A stretch of 50,417 nt of DNA from a virus: the UHGV virus genome UHGV-0559702, one strand, 5' to 3'. Below, in pieces: positions 1-50,417 of the stretch. Every line of letters begins with the position of its first letter. The stretch's first letter is position 1. The notes under the pieces were generated by a model that saw only the letters and a list, made by a program, of their open reading frames with translations, did no database searches and had not been told where the DNA came from. Position numbers and translations under genes: made by a program.

Positions 1-528
1 CGCAGCGTATCCTAGATTCTGAGGGTTTGCCCCGCCCAAAGCGAGATGTGCCCGTCGAATTTTGATACCTTCCTTCTTTTTTGAAAAGACATCTTGATTA
101 TGCCTTGTAACGGCTCCTAACAGCAAAACGGAAAGTCCAATGGAGGGGAGGGGAGACAAAGAGACATACCCAGAGGGTACGTCTTTAGGGATGAGCAGTT
201 GACGAATCCGTCTGTCGACAGACTCTGTTTTTCTGGCAAATCCTGTTTTACGGATTTTCTTCAATGCCGCCTCTGTATCTGCTTTCTCTCCTTCCTCCCC
301 CTCTTCGAGTGTCTTGTATAGAGCACTTACCTTTCCCACATCCTTGGCCCCGTTTGCCGTATCCAGCGGCATAGAAATCCCTGCCGCAAGACATGTCCTC
401 GTGGACAGGTACGGAAGGGAGAGCGCGGCACCCGACGACAAGCGAATACCGACGCTGGAATTCGAGTTCACCAGCTTTGAACTGAAATCGATAAGATCGT
501 CGATGTCTATCTTAGTCTTCCTCTTCAT
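1..528 (-). CDS. Hypothetical protein, 3'-truncated by the window start (N-terminal 176 aa). In frame with 49554..50417 if the contig is circular.
   Basis: ATG at 528..526 with a GGAGG RBS 7 nt upstream. The open frame runs with no stop to position 1, which falls exactly on a codon boundary. Its start overlaps the stop of the upstream gene by 17 nt. Confidence 0.45.
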   Translation of the reverse strand, partial: MKRKTKIDIDDLIDFSSKLVNSNSSVGIRLSSGAALSLPYLSTRTCLAAGISMPLDTANGAKDVGKVSALYKTLEEGEEGEKADTEAALKKIRKTGFARKTESVDRRIRQLLIPKDVPSGYVSLSPLPSIGLSVLLLGAVTRHNQDVFSKKKEGIKIRRAHLALGGANPQNLGYAA

Positions 529-1012
529 CGTCTGCCTCCGTTGCCGCTTCCAGCGTTATGAACTCGGGAAGAACCGCAATGCTGCCGCATTCGTCATCCA
601 TCTCCACAGCTTTAAATCCAAGCTTACGGGCAAAGGCGATCCGCATGGCCTGAGCCTCCCAACTTGCGTCATCGTCGTCCATGTTGAGGAGGTTTACCCA
701 GTCTTCATCTTGATAACCAATTTTCTCTTCAACCACGGCATACCAGCAGAGATCAAAATACTTTTCGTCTATACCGCGCTCTGCCATAACTTCACGTAGA
801 GCCGTTCCAGCAGCGCCATCTTCAAGATACGGGAGATCCTCGTTCAAGAAGATGTCCTTGATGTCTATTTCGCACTGGTAGACGTAATTTCCGTATTCCT
901 TTGCATGTCCGTAAGTACGGGCAAAGAACACCGCGCCGAAGTTATACCCTAACCCTGTTCCTGAGTTAGAGATAGCCAGATGTTCAATCATGCTTCCGTG
1001 GTATAGCTTCAT
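512..1012 (-). CDS. PARP/Tpt1-like (H-Y-E clade) ADP-ribosyltransferase-fold protein, 166 aa, acidic C-terminal tail
   Basis: AAAGGAG RBS before the ATG at 1012. The N-terminus reads MKLYHGS and is followed by GYNFGAVFFA. These resemble the HG[ST] and aromatic-GxG-[IV]-[YF]-F-A NAD-binding motifs of PARP and Tpt1/KptA ART folds. The C-terminus is EAATEADDEEED. The family call comes from motifs only. Confidence 0.5.
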   Translation of the reverse strand: MKLYHGSMIEHLAISNSGTGLGYNFGAVFFARTYGHAKEYGNYVYQCEIDIKDIFLNEDLPYLEDGAAGTALREVMAERGIDEKYFDLCWYAVVEEKIGYQDEDWVNLLNMDDDDASWEAQAMRIAFARKLGFKAVEMDDECGSIAVLPEFITLEAATEADDEEED

Positions 1013-1056: not shown

Positions 1057-1089
1057 TTTTTTGAAAAAATAAACAATTTTTTCAAAAAA
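1057..1089 (-). promoter_or_regulatory. Perfect 13-bp inverted repeat (TTTTTTGAAAAAA-N7-TTTTTTCAAAAAA) in the promoter region of the ART-fold gene; operator candidate
   Basis: Seen directly. AT-rich intergenic region between the terminator at 1141-1172 and the RBS at about 1020. Confidence 0.4.
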
Positions 1090-1140
1090 AGTTTTATCTT
1101 TTTTAACTCGTCAGTAACAGAAGGGAGAGGCAGAAAAACA

Positions 1141-1172
1141 AAAAGGGGCGGCTCTTAAAGCCACCCCTTTTC
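1141..1172 (-). terminator. Rho-independent terminator after the DUF1640-like gene
   Basis: GGGGTGGC/GCCGCCCC stem (one G-U pair) followed by a T-run on the minus strand. Confidence 0.5.
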
Positions 1173-1261: not shown

Positions 1262-1507
1262 TCAAAAGATCATACCATACTTGACCTTCAACACTTCAGC
1301 ACGAATTTTTTCGATCTCCGCTTGCACTTTCAGGTCCAATTCCCGAATTTCTTTTTGCAACCGCAGTTCCGTTTCGCGCAGATCTCCCTTGGTGGCACTG
1401 GCGTTCCTTTGACTCTCGTCAAAGCGTTCCAGTACTTCCACGATGGCTTTTGCGGCTTCCTCGCCGACGGCCTTTTCAAGCTTTTTCCCATCATCGAACA
1501 GCAGCAT
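1262..1507 (-). CDS. DUF1640-like coiled-coil protein (81 aa)
   Basis: GGAGGG RBS before the ATG at 1507. The MLLFDDGKKLEKAVGEEAAKAIVEVLERFD... pattern and heptad-rich C-terminus are typical of DUF1640. Confidence 0.55.
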   Translation of the reverse strand: MLLFDDGKKLEKAVGEEAAKAIVEVLERFDESQRNASATKGDLRETELRLQKEIRELDLKVQAEIEKIRAEVLKVKYGMIF

Positions 1508-1562
1508 GGGGGAATCCCTCCGTTGGTGAAGTCTTATATGATTCATGCAGGCTTGCCAAGGA

Positions 1563-2834: not shown

Positions 2835-3905
2835 TTACTTGTTATCGTATTTCAAGGCCGTAGCCCGGATTCGATCCGCAAAGGGGATAATATCTTCCAG
2901 TTTTTCGATGTCTTCCTTTGCGTCTTTATTCTCCCCATCAAACAGTCCGACCCTCCACTGTTTTCCGTTGAAATACAGGCGGCACAGAGGCTTGAGCCTG
3001 TTGTCGTCAAGAAGGATGGAGCAGTAGCTGATGCTGTCCCGCATGGCTACGCGGGCCGGATCAACGGTGCCCACCAGAAGCGATTTGACAAGGTAATACG
3101 CCTCTTTTTCTTCCTCGGTGGTGACTATACGCGAATCCAGCTCTTTTCCTTGTGGGGTATCTTCGGACTCTATCTCTACAATTTCCGGTTTCTGCTGCGT
3201 CATGGCATTTTTCAATCGGTCGTTGATGCGGTCATTGATGAACTGGTCAAGCGCAGCGGTAAGGATTGGAGTGAAGCGATCCAGAACATTTTGCGTGATA
3301 CGTCCATCATACGTCTGGCCGATGAAAAAGCGTGCGAAATCTTCATGCGGCTTTTCCATTTGTTCGGACATGAGGCGTTTGAACTCTCGGTTGTACTTGA
3401 GTTCGTTTGCCGCGCTCATGCAGGCATCCCGATCAAACTTGCCTTTTGCCAGTTTGCGCAGTTCCGGGAGTAGCATTTCGTCCATATCGTCAAGGACGAA
3501 CTCCATATATGGCTTGCTGTCCATTTTGTTGGCTGTTTCAAGATCAGAATAGAACCGGTAACGGTTGCCGTCCGTCAGGATGGCAATGGGGGCTTCCGTT
3601 CCGTGGAAGTAAAGCTGTAGCTGGTTGCAGTGCTTCATGTCGAGAGACGTTCCCAAAGCCTTGCATTCCAGAAGAAGGATAGGCTTGCCGTCAACAAGAA
3701 TCGCATAGTCCACGCGGGCGTCTTTATACTCGCCAATAGGGGCTGAAAATTCGGGCACGACTTCCGCAGGATTGAAAACATCGTAACCAAGGGCCGCGAT
3801 GAAGGGCATCACCAAGGCGTTTTTCGTGGCCTCTTCGGTCTTGAGGCTATCTCCCAGATTCTTTACCTTTTTCGACAATTCAGCAATTCTTTCCGAAAAA
3901 TCCAT
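2835..3905 (-). CDS. Stand-alone HsdR_N-domain (type I restriction R-subunit N-terminal, Mrr/PD-(D/E)xK-like) nuclease-domain protein, 356 aa
   Basis: TEEATKNALVMPFIAALGYDVF...VDYAIL...LLLECK matches the HsdR N-terminal nuclease motif. AT-rich relative to the backbone. GGGAGAGAGG RBS. Confidence 0.75.
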   Translation of the reverse strand: MDFSERIAELSKKVKNLGDSLKTEEATKNALVMPFIAALGYDVFNPAEVVPEFSAPIGEYKDARVDYAILVDGKPILLLECKALGTSLDMKHCNQLQLYFHGTEAPIAILTDGNRYRFYSDLETANKMDSKPYMEFVLDDMDEMLLPELRKLAKGKFDRDACMSAANELKYNREFKRLMSEQMEKPHEDFARFFIGQTYDGRITQNVLDRFTPILTAALDQFINDRINDRLKNAMTQQKPEIVEIESEDTPQGKELDSRIVTTEEEKEAYYLVKSLLVGTVDPARVAMRDSISYCSILLDDNRLKPLCRLYFNGKQWRVGLFDGENKDAKEDIEKLEDIIPFADRIRATALKYDNK

Positions 3906-3940
3906 GGTCCTCTCTCCCTGTTCGGATTCAAGTTAATATA

Positions 3941-4540
3941 TTAAGATTTATATATTTTCTTATAGGTTTTCCAAGAATACAGTCCGGAAAGGATAGTGAG
4001 GATTCCCCATAACAAGGCCCCATTCGTATTGGGCGGCGTTTGGAGGGCACAACTCAGCCACAATACGGCTAGCACTACTGTTATCAGCACTCCAATGATA
4101 AGGGCAATTTTTTTAGGGGGCGTCTGAGAACGTTCATGATGTATAAGCGGGTTTGGTTCTCCACGCTCTTGGGCCAATTGGTCATCAAAAAGGTGTGCGC
4201 GGATAACCTCCATCATGGGGCTATTCACCTTTGCCAATGCCTTATTTCCATTTTTGAACTCAATAATGACGGTAGACTCAGTCGTCTTGCCTCCAGCTAC
4301 CGCACCCGCAACCGCTCCGATGCCTCCAAGCAAGACGCCGCCGACAAGTGCGCCTCCCAAAGTTCCGCCGAGCTTTTTGACCGATTCTTCATTGGCTACT
4401 TCGCAAGAGGCAATACTGGAAAGAAAAAGTTCCTTTGCTCCAAACATTTTTGAAGAGCAACGCAACTTGTTTTTATTCTTAATGTAAATATATTCTTCTT
4501 TCCCGTAGTCCCCTGCCAGAAACTTGATGTAGGTAGCCAT
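3941..4540 (-). CDS. Glycine-zipper membrane protein (199 aa) with two C-terminal TM helices
   Basis: GGTLGGALVGGVLLGGIGAVAGAVAGG glycine-zipper. C-terminal hydrophobic helices IALIIGVLITVVLAVLWL and LLWGILTILSGLY. AAGGGGG RBS. A TATAAT element lies upstream. Confidence 0.65.
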   Translation of the reverse strand: MATYIKFLAGDYGKEEYIYIKNKNKLRCSSKMFGAKELFLSSIASCEVANEESVKKLGGTLGGALVGGVLLGGIGAVAGAVAGGKTTESTVIIEFKNGNKALAKVNSPMMEVIRAHLFDDQLAQERGEPNPLIHHERSQTPPKKIALIIGVLITVVLAVLWLSCALQTPPNTNGALLWGILTILSGLYSWKTYKKIYKS

Positions 4541-4643
4541 ACATCATCCCCCTTATTATAGATGAGGCTATCATGGCATAGGCCGTTCCAAAAATCCACC
4601 GCCGCCGCCCTCCGCCCCGAAAGGGGCTTTTCTTTTGCCTGTA

Positions 4644-4661
4644 CGAACCTTGTTCACGGTG
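4644..4661 (+). promoter_or_regulatory. Conserved late-operon motif copy 1 (cGAACCTTGTTCACGGTG), about 55 bp upstream of the BRO gene
   Basis: Four near-identical copies at 4644, 5505, 38847 and 43486. Each lies 50-75 bp upstream of a plus-strand operon start. Confidence 0.55.
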
Positions 4662-4714
4662 TGCCCCCACGCCGCCATGCTGCATCATCTCCAAAACACT
4701 ATGGAGGTGCAGCG

Positions 4715-5503
4715 ATGGAAAATTCCCCCTTGGCTCTTTTCGAGCATGAAAAGTTCGGTTTCCTTCGCGTTGTTGAGCGCAAGGTGCAACCATGGTTCGT
4801 GGCGAAAGACGTGTGCGATATTCTTGAAATGGGCAACCCTCGTTCAAGCCTTGCACTTCTGGATGAGGATGAAAAGGGCGTCCATAGTATGGACACCCCC
4901 GGTGGAAAGCAGGAAATGACAATTATTTCCGAACCGGGCCTGTATTCCCTCATCCTGCGTTCCCGCAAGCCCGAAGCCAAGGCGTTCAAGCGGTGGGTGA
5001 CACATGAGGTCATCCCCTCCATTCGTAAGGTGGGCGGTTACCTGATAGCCAAGCCGGACGATACGCCCGAAGCCATCCTTGCCCGCGCCGTGCTGGTCGC
5101 GCAGGACACCATCAGGCGCATCGAAGCCGAGCGCGACGAGGCTATCCGCACCAAGGCCGAAATCGGTTCACGCCGCGAGGCCACCGCGATGGCAACCGCC
5201 TCCGCAGCCGTCCGCAAGGCTGCGGCTCTTGAGAACGAACTTGGGCGGGGCAGGGACTACAAGTCCGTGAAGGGCATCCCGTGGTTCCTTGACGTCTTCG
5301 CAGATACGCCAGCCGCGTACTCCGTCGCGGGACGCAAGCTTTCCGATATGTCCCGCCGTATGGATTACGAAATCCGGGAAATCGAGGACAGCCGTTTCGG
5401 GAGCGTGAAGGCGTACCACGTCGACGTGATCGAAGCCTTCCGGCTGGCCCTGAAAAACGACCTGAACATGCTGGGCAAGTACCGCCTTCGCCGTGCTGCA
5501 TAG
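4715..5503 (+). CDS. BRO-N domain phage antirepressor (second copy)
   Basis: GGAGG RBS. FEHEKFGFLRVVERKVQPWFVAKDVCDILE...KAFKRWVTHEVIPSIRKVGGY Bro-N signature. Confidence 0.8.
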   Translation: MENSPLALFEHEKFGFLRVVERKVQPWFVAKDVCDILEMGNPRSSLALLDEDEKGVHSMDTPGGKQEMTIISEPGLYSLILRSRKPEAKAFKRWVTHEVIPSIRKVGGYLIAKPDDTPEAILARAVLVAQDTIRRIEAERDEAIRTKAEIGSRREATAMATASAAVRKAAALENELGRGRDYKSVKGIPWFLDVFADTPAAYSVAGRKLSDMSRRMDYEIREIEDSRFGSVKAYHVDVIEAFRLALKNDLNMLGKYRLRRAA

Positions 5504-5522: not shown

Positions 5523-5577
5523 ATTTCGTCCCGGCTCTTTTGCCATGATGACCAAAACAACGGAGGGATACAGAGAT

Positions 5578-5991
5578 ATGGCCAGACCCAAAAAGAATAC
5601 TGCCCCGGAAACAACGCAGGCGACGAAGACAGATATCGTGATGGTTGCACTGAACCGGACGACCGGGATCACGTTCCCCATGCCCGACGGACGCAAGGTG
5701 CTCATCGAAGGCAACGCCGCCAGCCTGCGCGGAAAAGAAAAGGGCGTGCTGCCCGTGGGCGCGTTTGGGCTGACGCGGGTGAACGCCGACGATTGGGCAT
5801 ACATTGAAAAGACCTATGGTCCGCACATGGAAATCTTCAAGTCAGGGCTCATCTTTGCGCAGGCGCGCAAGGCCGACGCCGTGGACGAGGCCTACGAAAG
5901 GGCGGAACTGCGCAACGGGCTGGAGCCCGTGGATGTGGAGAACGACCCCAAGGCGCAGACCGAACCGCTCCAGAGCAAGGCGGGGTTCTAA
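5578..5991 (+). CDS. Hypothetical virion/head-tail protein (137 aa)
   Basis: GGAGGG RBS before the ATG at 5578. First gene of the head-tail connector operon. Confidence 0.55.
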   Translation: MARPKKNTAPETTQATKTDIVMVALNRTTGITFPMPDGRKVLIEGNAASLRGKEKGVLPVGAFGLTRVNADDWAYIEKTYGPHMEIFKSGLIFAQARKADAVDEAYERAELRNGLEPVDVENDPKAQTEPLQSKAGF

Positions 5992-5994
5992 ACC

Positions 5995-6426
5995 GTGGCT
6001 GTTGTTGTCTTTGACCCGCAGGAGTTCCGGGAGGCCTATCCGCGCTTCGTCGATACGAAGACCGGGCAGCCCCTCCTGACCGATGCACAGCTTCGGCAGG
6101 CATTCGACGTCGCCTGTCTGCTCTTGGACAACACAAACTCATCCCCGGTTCCTTATGATCCGGCCCACGGCGTCATGATCCGCAAGACGCTTCTGTATCT
6201 CCTCGTTTGCCATCTGGCGACGCTGGCCTTGTGGCCGATGGGGCAGGCCGGGCCAGTGGCCTCGGCGACGGAAGGAACTGTCAGCATCAGCTTCTCCGTG
6301 CCCCAGAACACCGGGAAAGCCTTTTACGCGCAGACGCCGTGCGGACAGACGTTTTGGCAGGCCATCCAGCCCTATGCCGTGGGCGGTCGCTACTATGCCG
6401 CCCGGTATTGGCATCCGTGGGGGTAA
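5995..6426 (+). CDS. DUF4054-like head-tail adaptor protein
   Basis: GTG start. The N-terminus (FDPQEFREAYPRFVDT...DAQL) is typical of DUF4054 proteins found next to sheath genes. Confidence 0.55.
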   Translation: MAVVVFDPQEFREAYPRFVDTKTGQPLLTDAQLRQAFDVACLLLDNTNSSPVPYDPAHGVMIRKTLLYLLVCHLATLALWPMGQAGPVASATEGTVSISFSVPQNTGKAFYAQTPCGQTFWQAIQPYAVGGRYYAARYWHPWG

Positions 6427-7910: not shown

Positions 7911-9416
7911 ATGAGCGTCAATGCCGACAAACTGGTTCAAATCATCCCCCGCATTATCGAGGGCGGCACGCCGGGCCTGACCTTCGCCGGGCTCCTGCTT
8001 TCGCAGTCCGAGCTTTTGCCCGCAGGCAGAGTCGTGCAGTTCGCCAGCGCGCAGGCCGTGGCCAATTATTTCGGCTCGCTTTCGGAAGAGGCAAGCATGG
8101 CTTCCATGTACTTCTCCGGCTACGTGAACACGACGAGCCTCCCGGACAAGATTTTCTTTGCCCGGTACAACGGCGAGGCCGTGGGCGCATGGCTGCGCGG
8201 CGCGAAGTATACGGGCAATCTCGCCGTGTTGCAGGCCGTCACCAACGGTGCGATGGTCATTTCCATCGACAACACGTCGCACACGCTTTCCTCCGTGGAC
8301 TTGTCCGCTGCAACCAGCTTCTCGCAGGTTGCGGAGGCGATCCAGACAGCGCTCACGACGGCGGGCGCTACCGGGGCGAAGGTGACGTACTCCAGCCAAG
8401 CCGGGGCGTTCCAGATCGACAGCCCGACGACCGGGGCAAGTTCCGCCGTGGCCTTTCCGACGCCGCCGGAAGCCGGGACCGACCTCGGCGCACTGCTTCT
8501 GCTCACCGAACAGTCCGGTGCCGTCCAGTCCGTAGGCATGGCTGGCCAGACGCTCCCCGACTGTATGACCAACGTGCTCCTGTATGCCCGCGATTGGGTG
8601 ACGTTCTCCACGGTATGGGAGCCCGAGCTTGACGACAAGATTGCGCTCGCCCAGTGGTGTGCCGGATATGACACCCGTTTCGCCTATGTGTTGTGGGATA
8701 CCGACAACGCTGCGCAGGTCGCGGGTTCCACGGCCTCGGCGGGGTATCAGATCGCCAAGGTGCTCGAACTCGACGGTACGGTTCCCGTGTTCAACACACC
8801 TGAGCTCGCAGCGTGGGTCATGGGCACGGCGGCCTCCATCAACTTTGAAGAGACGAACGGACGGCTCACATTCGCCTTCAAGCAAGGCGAAGGGCTTGCC
8901 GTAACCTGCGACAACGACGAGAACTATGATGCGCTGATCGCCAATGGCTACAACTGCTATGCGGACTTCGCCACGGCCTCCAGCCAGTTCAAGTTTTTCC
9001 AGAATGGGCAGGTTTCCGGCAAATGGGGCTGGCTCGACACCTACCTTGACGCCATCGCCATCAAAGACGGCCTCCAGCTTAACCTCCTTGATCTGTTCAA
9101 GGCCGTAACGTGCATCCCCTACAACGAGAGCGGCTACGGCATGATCCGCACGGCATGTCTCGACACCATCACGCGGTTTCTCGACTTCGGGGCTATCCGC
9201 ACGGGCGTGACCCTCTCGAACACCCAAAAGGTGCAGCTCCTCGCGGAAATCGGGCTGGACGTTTCCCAGACGCTTGAAACGCAGGGCTGGTATATGCAGG
9301 TCAAGGACCCCGGCGCGACCGTACGCGGACAACGCCAGTCCCCCGAATGCAAATTTTACTACATGGACGGCGGCAGCGTGCAGCAAATCGTCATGCCCGC
9401 CACGGCCATTCAGTGA
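7911..9416 (+). CDS. Tail sheath protein (DUF3383-like)
   Basis: 501 aa, and directly upstream of a DUF3277-like tube gene. The architecture is typical of Bcep781-/PBSX-like contractile tails. Confidence 0.75.
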   Translation: MSVNADKLVQIIPRIIEGGTPGLTFAGLLLSQSELLPAGRVVQFASAQAVANYFGSLSEEASMASMYFSGYVNTTSLPDKIFFARYNGEAVGAWLRGAKYTGNLAVLQAVTNGAMVISIDNTSHTLSSVDLSAATSFSQVAEAIQTALTTAGATGAKVTYSSQAGAFQIDSPTTGASSAVAFPTPPEAGTDLGALLLLTEQSGAVQSVGMAGQTLPDCMTNVLLYARDWVTFSTVWEPELDDKIALAQWCAGYDTRFAYVLWDTDNAAQVAGSTASAGYQIAKVLELDGTVPVFNTPELAAWVMGTAASINFEETNGRLTFAFKQGEGLAVTCDNDENYDALIANGYNCYADFATASSQFKFFQNGQVSGKWGWLDTYLDAIAIKDGLQLNLLDLFKAVTCIPYNESGYGMIRTACLDTITRFLDFGAIRTGVTLSNTQKVQLLAEIGLDVSQTLETQGWYMQVKDPGATVRGQRQSPECKFYYMDGGSVQQIVMPATAIQ

Positions 9417-10521: not shown

Positions 10522-12316
10522 ACTCGTCGTCAGCCTCTTGCTGAAAGCAGGGGATTTTAAAGCGCAGGTGCAGGCCGCACAGGAGCGGCTGGACGGCGTG
10601 CAGGCCGCAGCCGTTGACGCGGGGCGCGCGACATATGACGCAGGCGTCAAGGGGGCCCAAGGTCTTGGCCAGTCTGCCGATGTCGCCTCTTCGTTGCAAG
10701 CCGCCTTCGAGGAAGCCGTGCAAAAAGGCCGCGAAATCAGCGAGGTGACGAAAGAGTATCAGCGGATGCGCGAGGAGCTTATCCGCACCGGAGCGGCAAA
10801 AGAACGTCTTGAGGCCCTTGATGATGCAGCGAAAAAACTGGGCGTTTCGCTGGAAGACGCGGCGGACAAAGGCGCGTTTGGCTTTGAACGGCTCAAGAGC
10901 GTGGCAGCGCAGGCCCTCGCCGTCATCGGCGGCGTCTCCATCCTGAAAAGCTCCATAGCGCAGTATTACGAGCAGGCTCAGGCTATCGAGAAGACTTCGG
11001 ACGCGCTCGGCATGAGCATTGAAGACTGGCAGGCATGGCAACGGACGGCAGCCGCCGCCGGGGTTGACGCCGAGGAACTTTCGACTCGGTTTATGGATCT
11101 GGGCGACTGGATGCAGGATCTCATTTTGCACGACTCCGGGCCGCTTAAGGACGCGACCAAAGACCTGGGGGTGAGCTTCACGGATGCGAAAGGGAAGGCC
11201 GTTTCCTTTGAAGAAGGGCTTCTTCGGCTTTCCGACGCCACGTCAAAAATCGACCGCCAGAAGGCGACCTCGATCCTCACGCAGATCGGCTTCGACGAAA
11301 AAACCATCCCGCTCATCCTCAAGGGCCGCAAAGGGATTGAGGAGCTTCTGAAAGTCCAGAAGGCTCAAGCCATCTACAGCAAGCAGGACATCGAAAACGC
11401 GAAGAAGCAACGGGAGGCGCAGCAGCGGCTCAATGACGCATGGGAGGCCATCTCAGCCCTTTTCGCCAGCACCGTCTCCCCTGCGATCACGTTTTTGACG
11501 AACCTGCTCGGCGATCTCCTCGGGTGGGTGAAAGAAAACAAGCAGTTCGTGATCGTCTTCTTTACGGCGTTAGCCGGGGTCATTACGACGCTCATGCTCC
11601 CGGCGTTGAGCGCGATGGCGACGGCGGCATGGGCTGCGATTGCGCCGTTTACGCCGTTGATTGCGGGCATCGGCGCGATCGCGCTGGTTGTCGACGATCT
11701 CATTACCTACATCAAAGGCGGAGAATCTGCACTTTCCGGGCTCTGGACGATGTTCGGAACTGGCGATGAAATCGGGGCTCGTTTCAAGGCTATTTGGGAA
11801 GGCATCAAAAGTATCCTCGGGGGCGTCTGGGATGCCCTTTCGGGGGTCGCCAAGCTCTTCAACTCCGTTCTTACACTGGACGGAAAAGGCGTTATCGAAG
11901 CCCTCAAAACGATCTGGGGAGGCATCTCCAAAATCAATGATGTGCTTGTCGAAATGCTGAACTGGGTAGCCCAGAAGCTCTACAATTTGCTTCCCGACTG
12001 GATCAAGGATTGGCTCGGCGGCGATGAGTCTTCGCGCCCGGAAGAAACGAAGGCCGAAGCCAAGCCCGGCGGCGTCGCCGATTCGATGCGGGTTGGTGAT
12101 GTCCGCCCGTCTATTCTGCCGCCGCAGGTGCGCGCCGGGGATGCGCGTCCGGGAAACGTGAGCAACGTCAACAATTCTCGTCAGATGACGTCAACCACCA
12201 ATGTGGGTGAGGTCAAGGTCTACACGCAGGCTACGGATGCGGAGGGGATGGCCGAAGGAGTGGTTCCGGCACTTCGTAATCAGACCGCGCAGGCAGACAG
12301 CGCATTCGGGTACTGA
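10508..12316 (+). CDS. Tail tape measure protein
   Basis: 602 aa, Ala/Gln-rich coiled-coil N-terminus, central hydrophobic segment, and its position after the chaperones. Confidence 0.85.
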   Translation: MNAGELVVSLLLKAGDFKAQVQAAQERLDGVQAAAVDAGRATYDAGVKGAQGLGQSADVASSLQAAFEEAVQKGREISEVTKEYQRMREELIRTGAAKERLEALDDAAKKLGVSLEDAADKGAFGFERLKSVAAQALAVIGGVSILKSSIAQYYEQAQAIEKTSDALGMSIEDWQAWQRTAAAAGVDAEELSTRFMDLGDWMQDLILHDSGPLKDATKDLGVSFTDAKGKAVSFEEGLLRLSDATSKIDRQKATSILTQIGFDEKTIPLILKGRKGIEELLKVQKAQAIYSKQDIENAKKQREAQQRLNDAWEAISALFASTVSPAITFLTNLLGDLLGWVKENKQFVIVFFTALAGVITTLMLPALSAMATAAWAAIAPFTPLIAGIGAIALVVDDLITYIKGGESALSGLWTMFGTGDEIGARFKAIWEGIKSILGGVWDALSGVAKLFNSVLTLDGKGVIEALKTIWGGISKINDVLVEMLNWVAQKLYNLLPDWIKDWLGGDESSRPEETKAEAKPGGVADSMRVGDVRPSILPPQVRAGDARPGNVSNVNNSRQMTSTTNVGEVKVYTQATDAEGMAEGVVPALRNQTAQADSAFGY

Positions 12317-27085: not shown

Positions 27086-27088
27086 CTC

Positions 27089-27484
27089 TTAGAAGGGCAC
27101 ATTGTCCATGCCGTAAGATTCAGAAGGTAAGGATGAACTGGGCTTTCCTCCGTCCTTTTTGTCGAGGAACTGGACGCGCTGCGCCTTGATTTCCGTGGAG
27201 TAGCGTTTCTGCCCCTGCTGATCCTGCCATTCCCGCGTAGATAATGAACCTTCCACGAATACAAGACTTCCCTTGCTCAAGTACTGGTTGCAATGTTCAG
27301 CGGCCTTTTGGAACACAACGACGCTATGCCATTCGGCCTTTTGAATCCGATTCCCTTCCCGATCCGTGTAGCTTTCGTCAGTAGCGACATTGATACGACA
27401 AATTGCTGCGCCGTTTTGGGAATATTTGAGTTCTGGATCGCGCCCAAGGCGTCCGATGATTTCTACACGGTTGAGACTAGCCAT
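27089..27484 (-). CDS. ssb: Single-stranded DNA-binding protein
   Basis: OB-fold N-terminus (LNRVEIIGRLGRDPELKY...) and an acidic C-terminal tail ending MDNVPF. GGAGGG RBS. Confidence 0.85.
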   Translation of the reverse strand: MASLNRVEIIGRLGRDPELKYSQNGAAICRINVATDESYTDREGNRIQKAEWHSVVVFQKAAEHCNQYLSKGSLVFVEGSLSTREWQDQQGQKRYSTEIKAQRVQFLDKKDGGKPSSSLPSESYGMDNVPF

Positions 27485-31033: not shown

Positions 31034-31678
31034 AGTCACTCCGAAACAGGACATTTTACCCAACTGTTGAGGAATCCTTAACAGTTCGCTCATTGACAAT
31101 CAGCGCGAAGACCCTCAACACCGCACGCGGCCCCTACCGGCTTTCGCCGACAGCCCCGGAGCGTGACGAGGCGAGCACACAGGCGTCGGCCCCGGTGTGA
31201 ATGCGATGCCTGAAACCCTGCTTCCTTTCCTCCCACGGTATACGCGGGAGGTCGGAAACAAGATTTGATAATTCAGTTTCACGGCCCGATCCTCATGTCG
31301 TAACCGTGGGCCCTGTTGGTCGGCTCGGCCCCCGTCGCTTCGGTGCGCTTTGCGCTTCGGCCTTCTTTTCAGCCGTTTTTCCGTCCCGCCGTCCTTACGC
31401 GGCCTGTCTCCACCTCGCCAGCCTGTTGCCCTTCTTTCTCGCGTCCTACTGGGGAGCCTTAGCACTGGGGGTCGGCATCGTTCGGTTGCTCCATACTGAG
31501 CGGCTGGCTTCCTCCGCCCGGGGTTTCGGCTACTTTCCGGCTGGTGTGCCGGGCGTGTTCGCCTTCCCCGCGCGTCGTGAAGACAGTATGCCAAATGGAA
31601 TACTTTTGGTCAAGAAAATTTATTCCATTTTGAATATGAGAGGGCAAAAAAATACCCCCTAAAAAGGGGGCTACTAAG

Positions 31679-32014
<336 letters not shown>

Positions 32015-33038: not shown

Positions 33039-33284
33039 ATGAAAACACCCATTGTTCAAGAAATAGAAAGTTTTTTTGCTCGGTATCCTAATTGTCCTGC
33101 TAGCAAGTTAGCGCGAGTGGCTGGTGTGAGTCAGCCAGTAGTAAGCCGTGCACTAACGGGAGGGCGCCGCGATATGATGTCTGAAAGTGCCGACAAGCTC
33201 CGCGCCGCCATGCGTCGCCTTGAGTGCGAACTTAGGCCCACAGCCACGGCTGAAACTCCCAACGAACACGAATCCCGTGGATGA
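33039..33284 (+). CDS. Cro-like HTH regulator (81 aa)
   Basis: ASKLARVAGVSQPVVSRAL HTH. First gene of the rightward operon. Confidence 0.65.
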   Translation: MKTPIVQEIESFFARYPNCPASKLARVAGVSQPVVSRALTGGRRDMMSESADKLRAAMRRLECELRPTATAETPNEHESRG

Positions 33285-33555
33285 GTGGGGGCTTGCCCGT
33301 CTCATCGGGTACAGCGGCGGGGGCGCAGCCTTTTGGCTTTTCACGCGCCGCCGTGAGTCCCGCAATGCAACGCCTGACCACAGCTTCGGGCGTCGGGTAC
33401 TCCGCGATGCGGTACGCCCGCCAGCGTATCCGGGGATCCCTATGGATCAGGATGCGGACACGCCAGACGGCACGGTGGCGAGTGATGAGCAGGTGAACGA
33501 AAGATTCCATGCCCCCATTAGAGCATGGGTATACACCAGGGAAAATGATCGATGA
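33277..33555 (+). CDS. Hypothetical protein (GTG start); the alternative frame 33281..33496 is also open
   Basis: Its end overlaps the next gene with ATGA. Chosen over the Arg-rich alternative frame on composition. Weak. Confidence 0.3.
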   Translation: MDEWGLARLIGYSGGGAAFWLFTRRRESRNATPDHSFGRRVLRDAVRPPAYPGIPMDQDADTPDGTVASDEQVNERFHAPIRAWVYTRENDR

Positions 33556-34395: not shown

Positions 34396-34586
34396 GCCCG
34401 TGCCGCTTGGGTCGGCTTCACCGTGATGGGCGGCGAATCCTGTGTTTTGCGGACTGGTCGAAAGAGTACGGAGTCCCGGCGTGGACGTCCCGAAACGGGT
34501 TCGTCAAAGACGTGAACTTCTGCCGCCTGTACTGCGAGAAGAGGCCGGACATTGTTGAAGTAGAACTTGAAGGTTTCAAGGCATAG
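34386..34586 (+). CDS. Hypothetical protein (66 aa)
   Basis: Overlaps the upstream stop. Confidence 0.4.
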   Translation: MGVGPCRLGRLHRDGRRILCFADWSKEYGVPAWTSRNGFVKDVNFCRLYCEKRPDIVEVELEGFKA

Positions 34587-34652
34587 GCAAAAGAAAAGGC
34601 CCAATGCGGGAACACCGGGCCAAATCAAAACAACTAAACTGACGGAGTAATT

Positions 34653-42654: not shown

Positions 42655-43401
42655 TTAGAGTCCTGCTTCTTGACATCTTTCCTTCACAAAAGGGTTCTCG
42701 TTACCTTGTAGTCTTTCAATACGTCTGGCCCGCGTGCATTCCCACGCATCAACCGGATACATCTTGTCCCATGCGTCCATGAGCTGCGTCTGCTGGCGGC
42801 TCATGCGGTAGCGCGGGGCATAGGCGTCGGCCATATACTTGTAGGTCCGGGCAATCTGTCCCCTCGCTCTGATAGGCGGCTCGGCCCTGCGGTCGGCGAT
42901 CTTCATCCCGCAGCTTCCGAAGTCCGGCTCCTCGCCCGGCAACATCTGAAAGTTGTAGTTCTGGCGTAGGGCATTCACCGCGCCGATGGCCGGATACAGG
43001 TTGTACATGTCCGCCTGCATGTACCGATAGTCTTTATTGACCTTCTCGGCACACTTGCGGCCTTTGAACGCCTTTCCCCTGTTGTCCACGCACTGCGCGT
43101 CGCCCTCGCGCCACTCCGCGAACGCCTGCCCGAAGTTCTCGGCGGGGACCACGTGTTCCCATTCCACCTTCCCGGCCCGCTTCTCGTGCTTCGCGGCAGT
43201 AAAACCCTCCGGGAGGGTGACGTTCTTCTTCTCGTCGAACGCCGCCCCGCAGTAGAGCGTGATCCGGTGGTCATGATAGATTTGTCGCTCCAACGTTTTT
43301 TTGGCCTTGCTGAACGAATCGTTCCATTCGTTGCCCGCGGCCTGCGCCTCGGACGTCATAACTAGCGCGGCCAGCAAAAACACCATGATGCTTTTGTACA
43401 T
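42655..43401 (-). CDS. Endonuclease I (EndA/Dns-type) periplasmic DNase with signal peptide; moron
   Basis: Signal peptide MYKSIMVFLLAALVMTSEAQA. YCGAAFDEKK...KVEWEHVVPAENFG... matches the Endonuclease_1 family. Opposite strand to the flanking head genes, with its own AT-rich promoter. Confidence 0.75.
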   Translation of the reverse strand: MYKSIMVFLLAALVMTSEAQAAGNEWNDSFSKAKKTLERQIYHDHRITLYCGAAFDEKKNVTLPEGFTAAKHEKRAGKVEWEHVVPAENFGQAFAEWREGDAQCVDNRGKAFKGRKCAEKVNKDYRYMQADMYNLYPAIGAVNALRQNYNFQMLPGEEPDFGSCGMKIADRRAEPPIRARGQIARTYKYMADAYAPRYRMSRQQTQLMDAWDKMYPVDAWECTRARRIERLQGNENPFVKERCQEAGL

Positions 43402-49287: not shown

Positions 49288-49326
49288 AAAGCCCCAACCG
49301 CCTGTTTAACGGTTGGGGCTTTCTTT
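49288..49326. terminator. Bidirectional rho-independent terminator (perfect 13-bp stem)
   Basis: AAAGCCCCAACCG-cctgtttaa-CGGTTGGGGCTTT followed by TCTTT. Lies between the convergent capsid and RHH genes. Confidence 0.7.
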
Positions 49327-49339
49327 ACGTAGTCAGGCG

Positions 49340-49561
49340 TCATTTTCCAAGCTGCTGTATATTTGCGTCCAGCCACATCTCGACTGCTTCCCGTACTACC
49401 TGTGAGCGTAGGATACCCCTATCCGTACATACATCGTTCAGCCGTTCCCAGACATGATCCGGCATAGATACAGTCTTTACTGTTGCACGATTTTCAACCT
49501 TTTTTTTACGTCCAGATCCTTTACGGCGTCCACCCTGCTTTTTTTCTTGTGCATCATTCAT
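49340..49561 (-). CDS. Ribbon-helix-helix (CopG/Arc-like) DNA-binding protein
   Basis: ATVKTVSMPDHVWERLNDVCTDRGILRSQVVREAV RHH pattern. Overlaps the upstream ORF by 8 nt. Confidence 0.55.
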   Translation of the reverse strand: MNDAQEKKQGGRRKGSGRKKKVENRATVKTVSMPDHVWERLNDVCTDRGILRSQVVREAVEMWLDANIQQLGK

Positions 49562-50417
49562 TTGTTGAATCTCCCCTCATCAAAAAGCTATCTTCTTCCC
49601 ACTGGCTGCGCCAGAAATAGCCTTTCACCCTCTTTTCAGTAGAGACGTATTCTGTAATGCCGATCAGCGGCTCGGCAAAGGCATGAAGATGTCCGTCCCG
49701 TGCCCCTCCGCGAACTTGAAAGTCTGTGATTGCTGAAAAACCGATATTCGTTGCGGACAGCCATTTTCCGCTGTACGTTCCTATCGCGGTTACAAGCTGT
49801 TCAATGGGGTTTCCAGGGCTCATAACGTCGCGCCGATCCAAAACAACTTTCCCGGCGGGAATGCACTCTAGAAGCGTAGAGAGGTCATCATGCAAAGCCG
49901 GGGCGTCGTATGAAGTGATCAGCCCACCGGAGAACTTTCCGAAGTTCAAGAAAAGATCCACGGCGTTCGGTACGGAATGCAGGGCTTCCGACAGTTCAAA
50001 GATAAGGCTTACCCGTATATGCCCCGTTGCACCGGGCTGCAAAGAGAGATGTGTGGAGCCTTTTGCGTAGTCGCTCCCGTTACGGGATTTTTCAAAAGTA
50101 AAAGCCGCTCCTAATCTTTGGCTAGGCTCGAAAATAGCGGTTTCATGCTCCCCAAGGGGTTCGATGCTATGCACAACAAGGCATACTCCGGTAACTTTGG
50201 GACCATGCATCTCGCGCTCCAGTGCATGTCCCATCCCCCATGCTGCAAAGAGGGGCGCGCCGTTGAGCATAGTATAATTCGTCAAGATGTTTGCCGTTTG
50301 TACAAAGAGATTGGAAAGGATCAGGTAAGTTCCCTTTCCTGACGCCTGACGGCTGGCATTTCCGCGCACGGATTTGGGTGTAGAAAGAAAAACAGGATAT
50401 TGTATCGCCTTTTTGGA
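49554..50417 (-). CDS. Hypothetical protein, 5'-truncated by the window end (at least 288 aa). Continuous in frame with 1..528 if the contig is circular.
   Basis: The open frame runs without a stop to the last base of the window. The window end is a codon boundary. Confidence 0.5.
   Translation of the reverse strand, partial: SKKAIQYPVFLSTPKSVRGNASRQASGKGTYLILSNLFVQTANILTNYTMLNGAPLFAAWGMGHALEREMHGPKVTGVCLVVHSIEPLGEHETAIFEPSQRLGAAFTFEKSRNGSDYAKGSTHLSLQPGATGHIRVSLIFELSEALHSVPNAVDLFLNFGKFSGGLITSYDAPALHDDLSTLLECIPAGKVVLDRRDVMSPGNPIEQLVTAIGTYSGKWLSATNIGFSAITDFQVRGGARDGHLHAFAEPLIGITEYVSTEKRVKGYFWRSQWEEDSFLMRGDSTNE

Follow-up and report, generated by a model that had tools for sequence, protein, structure and literature searches.

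The window analyzed here, the whole 50,417-nucleotide (nt) stretch of UHGV virus genome UHGV-0559702, is the genome (about 50.4 kb) of a Bilophila wadsworthia phage. Three genes on its minus strand, lying across the point where the two ends of the contig join, form one operon, which begins with a promoter and an operator-like inverted repeat. The first gene is a homologue of acrIF11, encoding an ADP-ribosyltransferase (ART) of 166 amino acids (aa). The second encodes a predicted 463-aa fusion of Cas8f and Cas5f, two proteins of type I-F CRISPR (short palindromic repeats that are clustered and regularly interspaced)-Cas systems. The third encodes a 73-aa protein resembling ribbon-helix-helix (RHH) proteins. 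The features of the operon and its borders are as follows.

512..1012, minus strand: ART gene, very probably of the acrIF11 family, 166 aa; H5 is encoded at 998-1000 and D140/E141 at 590-595, and the acidic tail lies past residue 146.
1..528, minus strand: 5' part of the fusion gene, codons 1-176; the GGANPQN loop (residues 165-171) is encoded at 16-36.
49554..50417, minus strand: 3' part of the fusion gene, codons 177-463; Cas8f gives way to Cas5f at about 50331-50333 (residues 205/206), the remainder being a full-length Cas5f (Csy2).
49340..49561, minus strand: RHH-like gene, 73 aa, last in the operon, in the position of an anti-CRISPR-associated (aca) gene; weak matches to RHH_1, RHH_3 and PHROG repressor families.
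1057..1089, unstranded: perfect 14-bp inverted repeat, TTTTTTGAAAAAAT / ATTTTTTCAAAAAA, with a 5-nt spacer; it overlaps a promoter-like site and is a candidate operator.
1140..1172, minus strand: hairpin like an intrinsic terminator, with a 15-pair stem and then a T run; it closes the upstream gene 1546..1262.
49288..49322, unstranded: hairpin with a 13-bp stem, AAAGCCCCAACCG-9 nt-CGGTTGGGGCTTT, read from the sequence; it lies between the convergent RHH and major capsid genes.

The ART reading frame runs from an ATG at 1012 to a stop at 514-512. Its product opens with MKLYHGS, continues through GYNFGAVFFA, and ends in a strongly acidic tail, EAATEADDEEED. Because a Shine-Dalgarno sequence (AGGAG) lies 8-9 nt 5' of this ATG, and because MKLYHGS is the start in 18 of 18 ART homologues, the 166-aa start is the correct one, not that of the 181-aa version given by the open reading frame (ORF) lister. 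The fusion frame begins at 528, overlapping the ART stop by 17 nt, reaches the window edge at position 1, and is taken up in the same frame at 50417 to end at 49554, for a total of 463 aa. The join across the contig ends is genuine, since the 463-aa gene is contiguous elsewhere: at 98% identity it is found unbroken, with the same neighbors, in 16 or more independent contigs, metagenomic and viral (about 50 kb; from gut metagenomes and IMG/VR). The 73-aa gene (49561..49340) in turn overlaps the fusion stop by 8 nt. Upstream, the hairpin at 1140-1172 terminates the preceding gene and thereby marks the start of the operon. Downstream, the hairpin at 49288-49322 is the likely end; a strict terminator scan missed it because its loop is 9 nt. 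The layout thus agrees with the initial annotation of this DNA, which had described a 166-aa ORF with an acidic tail, the 17-nt overlap, a partner gene across a circular join, a three-gene module, and a perfect promoter inverted repeat, the last being 14 nt rather than the 13 noted.

The ART is, with high confidence, a member of the AcrIF11 family of anti-CRISPR enzymes, judging from profile matches and alignments. The curated NCBIfam equivalog NF052490.1 ("AcrIF11 family anti-CRISPR ADP-ribosyltransferase") matches residues 1-146 at 107.5 bits (cut-off 50; E 1.1e-30) and is covered over positions 1-140 of 142. Two solved members of the family are also matched, PDB 8DWQ (E 3.8e-6 by sequence, 9.3e-9 with the family profile) and PDB 6KYF, AcrIF11Pae1 (E 7e-4 and 9.5e-6); 8DWQ is AcrIF11Pae2 (PMC12421852). 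The Pfam family PF26151 (AcrIF11_ADP_ribosyl) is precomputed on proteins 97-98% identical to the ART. The local Pfam scan gave only a weak match to ART-PolyVal (18 bits; cut-off 31.2), and a tblastn search with the ART matched Moraxella Mcat phages only, with an identity of 31%. D146/E147 in AcrIF11Pae2 and D115 in AcrIF11Pae1 are important for catalysis, and the residue modified by AcrIF11 is N250 of Csy1/Cas8f (PMC12421852). D140/E141 of the ART (in MDDECG) align to these catalytic residues of both proteins, and H5 (in LYHGS) is the counterpart of the histidine in ELFHGS, an N-terminal motif. Across 19 ART homologues there is no variation in H5, D140 or E141, nor in the WEAQ and DECGS motifs. 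A diphtheria-toxin-like ART fold would be expected from the homology to solved structures.

The initial annotation had taken the MKLYHGS and GAVFFA segments for motifs of a PARP/Tpt1-like, DarT-like ART. The ADP-ribosyltransferase superfamily stands, and the segments correspond to the conserved N-terminal motifs of AcrIF11 ([LF][YF]HGS and F-G), but the PARP/Tpt1 class does not: in Pfam only ART-PolyVal was matched, the AcrIF11 equivalog was passed, and a PADLOC scan found neither DarT/DarG nor any other defense model. Nor is the system undescribed as a whole, as had been proposed, because the ART is a new member of an already described family and only the fusion protein is undescribed. The ART resembles known AcrIF11 proteins in scoring above the cut-off of the curated model, in its N-terminal xxHGS, in its C-terminal W-E-x-Q...M-x-D-E-x-G with the catalytic Asp/Glu, in being phage-encoded, and in that the type I-F Cas8f of its host has the target Asn loop. 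It differs in being only about 30% identical to the solved homologues, in an extra acidic C-terminal tail of about 20 residues, in coming from a gut phage of Desulfovibrionaceae (Bilophila) rather than of Pseudomonas or Moraxella, and in its translational coupling to a Cas8f-Cas5f gene.

The partner, which the initial annotation had left as a large unknown ORF, is by its sequence an N-terminal domain of Cas8f joined to a complete Cas5f. PADLOC models of Cas8f and Cas5f match residues 10-193 (E 2.2e-20) and 207-457 (208-453 on profile positions 1-249 of 254; E 3.5e-21), respectively, and a Pfam scan returned Cas_Csy2. When the window was searched by tblastn with the proteins of locus L010, Cas8f matched the fusion (3.8e-23) and Cas5f matched 50330..49560 (6.4e-55). 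The fusion is 35% identical to residues 41-255 of the 420 of B. wadsworthia Cas8f and 42% identical to residues 2-273 of the 277 of B. wadsworthia Cas5f. TIGR02565, the Cas5f equivalog, scored 38 bits, below its cut-off of 154, and the PADLOC Cas85f models cover only the last 70 or so residues. When 1.84 billion cluster representatives were searched exhaustively with HMMER, a single representative among the matches listed spans residues 1-463, and it comes from the fusion's own cluster; the other matches listed cover either residues 206-457 (Cas5f, 240-345 aa) or residues 8-197 (Cas8f, 330-530 aa). Among the matches listed, the architecture is therefore limited to one 50%-identity cluster. The nearest relatives of the fusion are the separate Cas8f and Cas5f proteins of canonical I-F (I-F1) operons, at 35-45% identity. 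These operons comprise cas2-3, cas8f, cas5f, cas7f, cas6f and cas1 with arrays, and are found in Bilophila, Desulfovibrio, Lawsonia, Mailhella and others.

Alignment defines what the fusion has kept and what it has lost. It begins about 40 residues into Cas8f and retains the strongly conserved motifs of the N-terminal domain; 41 alignment columns are invariant between the fusion and bona fide Cas8f proteins. The Cas8f profile aligns GGANPQN (165-171) to GGTK247PQN250 of strain PA14, so that N171 is the equivalent of N250, and hence both the loop that reads the protospacer-adjacent motif (PAM) and the Asn modified by AcrIF11 are retained. The Cas8f part stops at about residue 205, some 34 residues past the N250 equivalent, and the start of Cas5f follows directly. 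Absent are the first 40 or so residues of Cas8f and the whole C-terminal helical bundle (about 165 residues). In Cas8f this bundle rotates on R-loop formation, bears the Cas2/3 docking residues R390, N393 and L395, contains part of the R-loop binding channel, and helps stabilize the R-loop (bioRxiv 10.1101/453720).

A protein of this shape resembles the product of an in-frame deletion across two adjacent genes, and it might accordingly be a decaying, functionless remnant of a captured cas8f-cas5f fragment. This explanation is hardly credible. The gene is full length and intact in relatives at 60% to 98% identity, it occurs on hundreds of contigs, and the motifs that it shares with bona fide Cas8f and Cas5f are invariant. 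Over these relatives the ratio of nonsynonymous to synonymous substitution rates (dN/dS) is 0.09-0.26 in both halves; as both are under purifying selection, the fusion is taken to be functional.

The fusion is also an orphan, the sole cas gene of the window. A tandem-repeat scan of the window revealed no CRISPR array. The I-F repeat was not found there, either as the P. aeruginosa consensus or as the Desulfovibrionaceae consensus at up to 8 mismatches. Searches for cas7f, cas6f, cas1 and cas2-3, with PADLOC on the remaining called genes and with tblastn using the full I-F gene set, were negative. A complete phage-borne CRISPR-Cas system was accordingly rejected, there being no array, no I-F repeat, and no second cas gene in the window.

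Single-chain proteins with the order Cas8f, Cas5f are known from the type I-F3 systems of Tn7-like CRISPR-associated transposons (CAST; for example Tn6677; PDB 6PIG, 9VTQ, 30GA), and they show weak direct sequence and fold matches to the window fusion. The I-F3 proteins, however, are 511-695 aa long (PDB entries and PADLOC models) and lie in operons with cas7f, cas6f, tniQ and tnsABC, whereas the window fusion is 463 aa long, bundle-less and orphan, with the separate Cas8f and Cas5f of I-F1 as its nearest relatives. Identity with an I-F3 (CAST) fusion was rejected on its length and on its neighbors, which are the ART, the RHH gene and a capsid gene. In the literature, no description was found of a short Cas8f-Cas5f fusion without the helical bundle, or of a fusion paired with AcrIF11; the related reports are limited to canonical Cas8f-Cas5f heterodimers, the I-F3 fusions, and a Cas5f homologue of P. 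multocida.

Viral Cas homologues that inhibit CRISPR offer a closer parallel. AcrIB3, a homologue of Cas5, and AcrIB4, a homologue of the C-terminal domain of Cas8b, are encoded by Listeria viruses and assemble into a defective type I-B Cascade. Orphan viral cas loci number 358 in IMG/VR according to Katz et al., and some of them lie beside known acr genes; since the window locus is present in IMG/VR, it may be among them. The window fusion shares with AcrIB3, AcrIB4 and the viral cas class its orphan state, its place beside a known acr gene, and a diverged clade of its own; like AcrIB3 and AcrIB4 it resembles host Cas proteins, to which it is about 35-42% identical, and a defective Cascade is the expected outcome. 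It differs in being of type I-F rather than I-B, in combining two subunits in one polypeptide, and in being known here from sequence alone. AcrIB4, moreover, corresponds to the Cas8b C terminus, whereas the window fusion is without the bundle that recruits Cas2/3. The short fusion is thus a candidate new form within the class of viral cas genes that act as anti-CRISPRs. AcrIF3 resembles the helical bundle alone and sequesters Cas2/3 (bioRxiv 10.1101/453720). It and the fusion both concern the step at which Cas8f recruits Cas2/3, but they are complementary: AcrIF3 is the bundle alone, and the fusion is everything but the bundle.

Comparison with related loci shows that the fusion always lies in a shuffling accessory cassette, beside AcrIF11, RHH, GNAT or HicB genes. 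The order ART, fusion, RHH is seen in the window and in 16 other loci. In most relatives, the promoter with its inverted repeat is separated from the ART by a gene for a 118-aa GNAT acetyltransferase and by an ORF of 56 aa (L001 4947-5494; also L002-L006, L086 and L087); both are absent from the window, between 1012 and 1057. One anti-CRISPR, AcrVA5, is an acetyltransferase, and the GNAT could be a further enzymatic anti-defense gene. The 73-aa RHH gene follows the fusion in nearly all relatives. In a divergent clade (59% identity) the order is a HicB-like gene, a solitary I-F repeat, the fusion, a different, 56-aa RHH_5 protein, and the ART, and in one relative the ART is missing.

These arrangements bear on the view that the module is a new toxin-antitoxin or anti-phage defense system, like DarT-DarG, with an ART toxin, its partner and an RHH regulator. 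That the first protein is an ART, that it is coupled to the next gene by a 17-nt overlap, that a small RHH gene completes the operon, and that a HicB-like antitoxin gene lies near the operon in some relatives all fit such a system, and the initial annotation had read the overlap as a DarT-DarG-like coupling of toxin to partner. We regard it as very improbable. Cassette shuffling is typical of anti-defense islands and argues against an obligate toxin-partner pair: gene order varies, and a relative without the ART exists. The partner is Cas8f-Cas5f, with neither a macrodomain nor an ADP-ribosylhydrolase (ARH) domain, and PADLOC returned no DarT/DarG. The ART passes the AcrIF11 equivalog, and characterized AcrIF11 is described as CRISPR-specific (PMC12421852). 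Finally, the element is a phage that is targeted by the I-F system of its host (see below), which makes the module one of counter-defense rather than defense or toxin-antitoxin.

The solitary I-F repeat of the divergent clade, CTTATCCGCCGCGTAGGTGGTTTAGAAG, was located at L007 5877-5904, L008 3134-3161, L009 5707-5734 and L096 at about 4889 (minus strand). It agrees with the Desulfovibrionaceae consensus at 26 of 28 positions, its stem being preserved through a G-U pair, and it sits upstream of the fusion gene, at a distance of about 100 bp. By its sequence it looks like an RNA anti-CRISPR of the solitary repeat unit (Racr) type.

This repeat enters into two other explanations of the fusion. 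In the first, the fusion would be a working Cascade subunit for the phage itself, forming with host Cas7f and Cas6f and a host or phage RNA like CRISPR RNA (crRNA) a nuclease-free DNA-binding complex, used, for example, in gene silencing or in the exclusion of competitors, while AcrIF11 would switch off only the host Cas8f. It is in keeping with such a role that purifying selection maintains the PAM-reading GGANPQN and many invariant residues of Cas8f and Cas5f, and that relatives have the repeat upstream of the fusion gene. Loss of the bundle alone would remove Cas2/3 recruitment and spare the PAM-reading loop, though the bundle also stabilizes the R-loop. We nevertheless consider a working subunit unlikely. 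No spacer, array or solitary repeat was found in the window; since the AcrIF11-target Asn is retained in the fusion, the ART would probably inactivate the fusion as well; and no transposition or other effector genes are nearby, the cassette behaving like an acr island. In the second explanation, the fusion would be mainly an RNA sponge, a free Cas8f-Cas5f unit that, instead of joining a complete complex, binds crRNA 5' handles or the RNA of the solitary repeat and so starves Cascade assembly. In the structure of the Csy complex, the crRNA 5' handle is held by Cas5f and the N-terminal domain of Cas8f, the very parts that the fusion joins. The adjacency of the repeat and the fusion gene in L007-L009 and L096, and the precedent of AcrVIA2, a Cas3 homologue that works by affecting crRNA, point the same way. 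The repeat is, however, absent from the window and from most relatives, and a sponge and a dominant-negative subunit look alike computationally; we rate the sponge as improbable.

The last gene of the operon and the inverted repeat suggest how the operon might be controlled. The 73-aa protein matches PHROG transcriptional-repressor families, and its Pfam matches to RHH_1 (15.4 bits; cut-off 20.5) and RHH_3 (14.5 bits; cut-off 21.6) fall below threshold. The final position that the initial annotation gave to an RHH gene holds; the RHH family itself was reached at sub-threshold scores. The arms of the inverted repeat (1057-1070 and 1076-1089) are each 14 nt long, 100% complementary, and 5 nt apart. 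The repeat is unique in the window, where none is expected (100 shuffles), and 12 related loci have it in identical form at the operon promoter, be it the ART or the GNAT that comes first. A gene for a DNA-binding-like protein at the end of an acr operon, together with an inverted repeat in its promoter, is the arrangement of aca loci. The RHH regulator Aca14 controls acr operons through AT-rich inverted repeats, including an operon of AcrIF6 and a Cas5f homologue (PMC13551039). The window operon resembles those of Aca14 in having a small RHH-like protein last and an AT-rich inverted repeat overlapping its promoter; it differs in that the RHH matches are below the Pfam thresholds, and the likeness is drawn from the description of Aca14. 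By this analogy the 73-aa protein is moderately likely to be an Aca-like repressor. In L008, a 220-aa helix-turn-helix protein (5538-6200), whose C terminus is 61% identical to the 73-aa protein, takes the place of the ART, which suggests that regulators of the cassette undergo domain shuffling.

In identical loci, the operon is flanked on one side by genes for the major capsid, cement, Mu-F-like and portal proteins, and on the other by Bro-N and accessory genes. Sheath, tape measure, baseplate, terminase, integrase, DnaB-like helicase and single-stranded DNA-binding (SSB) proteins were recognized among the window translations by eye and only partly checked; in the early region, at about 22-34 kb, genes were called crudely and small ones are unannotated. 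A megablast search of half the window against INPHARED phages gave no match. The closest database copy of the fusion is annotated as B. wadsworthia and is on 326 contigs. B. wadsworthia has a canonical type I-F locus, the Cas5f of which is on 816 contigs, and its Cas8f bears the target Asn loop as GGSNPQN. From six B. wadsworthia I-F loci, 21 unique spacers were taken; four match the window at 29-31 of 32 positions, each with a 5'-CC PAM directly upstream.

8223..8254, minus strand: protospacer of spacer L102_+_13851, 31/32, 5'-CC PAM.
27087..27118, plus strand: protospacer of spacer L099_-_15605, 31/32, 5'-CC PAM.
31286..31317, minus strand: protospacer of spacer L102_+_13551, 29/32, 5'-CC PAM.
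33255..33286, minus strand: protospacer of spacer L102_+_13611, 30/32, 5'-CC PAM.

These matches with a CC PAM indicate that the phage family is attacked by type I-F, the very system that AcrIF11 and a Cas8f/Cas5f mimic would counter. The tape-measure gene is matched at 11063-11094 (minus strand), in 27 of 32 positions and with a CC PAM, by a spacer of another Bilophila species (L013, also L098), so related phages are targeted across Bilophila species; a metagenome scan for arrays with this spacer returned only the L013 array. One more B. wadsworthia spacer, which comes from the array lying upstream of cas2-3, agrees with 34583-34614 (minus strand) at 27 of 32 positions, but the 5' flank there is GG rather than CC; chance, an escape variant, or a misassumed array orientation could account for it.

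The family of the ART, the architecture, orphan status and selection of the fusion, the structure of the operon, and the host system with its spacers are established, and the operon is very likely directed against type I-F CRISPR. The overall reading that we consider probable is of an anti-type I-F operon that combines AcrIF11 with a dominant-negative subunit derived from Cas proteins and with an RHH repressor resembling Aca proteins. By analogy with characterized AcrIF11, the ART would transfer ADP-ribose from NAD+ to the Asn with which host Cas8f reads the PAM (N250 in P. aeruginosa), a residue that lies in the conserved GG-x-x-PQN loop that B. wadsworthia Cas8f also has, and this modification would block DNA binding by the Csy complex. 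The fusion, as a ready covalent Cas8f:Cas5f "tail," would compete with the host heterodimer for the Cas7f backbone and for the 5' handle of the crRNA. As the docking helix and part of the R-loop channel are in the missing bundle, Csy complexes holding the fusion could not dock Cas2/3. The ART might disarm the complexes that already exist and the fusion spoil those assembled later. The RHH protein would most likely bind at the inverted repeat and so repress the operon, in the manner of Aca proteins. For the fusion, the dominant-negative mechanism is slightly favored. If it is true, inhibition by viral cas genes would reach beyond type I-B to type I-F, the fusion would represent a mechanism complementary to that of AcrIF3, and it could offer a way of converting the I-F Cascade into a nuclease-free DNA binder.

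Several points weigh against this interpretation. The AlphaFold2 models, built from shallow alignments, are poor for both proteins: the ART model has a mean predicted local distance difference test score (pLDDT) of 55, with the N-terminal 49 residues below 50, and in Foldseek it gave no significant match in the PDB; the fusion model has a pLDDT of 47, with Cas5f chains of I-F Cascades as its top Foldseek matches (E 6e-9). Because the fusion is just 35-42% identical to the host proteins, its assembly with host Cas7f and crRNA is only putative. The RHH assignment of the 73-aa protein comes from sub-threshold matches only. The loci compared are those of closely related phages, so the repeated adjacency of ART and fusion does not amount to many independent observations. 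The PAM loop and the AcrIF11-target Asn, which a pure decoy would not need, are kept, and the role of the fusion may therefore be more specific than poisoning.

Retention of that exact loop would be explained if AcrIF11 and the fusion worked as a functional pair, an anti-CRISPR with an enzymatic and a decoy component. The ART might ADP-ribosylate N171 of the fusion, making it a permanently PAM-blind subunit, or the fusion might bring the ART into assembling Csy complexes. Such a pairing is doubtful; if true, it would be the first anti-CRISPR formed from a covalent fusion of two Cascade subunits without the nuclease-recruitment domain. With the anti-type I-F operon as the preferred interpretation, the locus records an active conflict of CRISPR and anti-CRISPR in B. 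wadsworthia, a common pathobiont of the human gut, in which related phages stack an enzyme and a Cas decoy, some of them with a solitary repeat as well, and host spacers match the phage.

Other observations concern the surroundings of the operon and the host. A variable region of the window (2835-4540, minus strand) encodes a 356-aa HsdR_N-like protein, of PD-(D/E)xK type, and a 199-aa glycine-zipper membrane protein; both genes are present in L002-L005, and L001 has other small genes instead. Bro-N proteins are encoded on both sides of this accessory region (in the 1563-2483 region and at 4562-5503). In two B. wadsworthia contigs (L100 5500-8745 and L104 2500-5744), cas2-3 is shortened to 447 aa and directly preceded by Mu-like Gam, GemA and HU-like genes, which suggests that a Mu-like prophage is inserted in the type I-F nuclease gene of the host. 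In the early-gene region of the window, a perfect (CT)24.5 dinucleotide repeat at 31893-31941 could be a slippage-prone tract for phase variation. A gene at 42655-43401 (minus strand), located between those for terminase and portal but on the other strand, encodes a 248-aa protein with an apparent signal peptide, which by eye resembles the Endonuclease_1 gene beside the host cas locus in L099.

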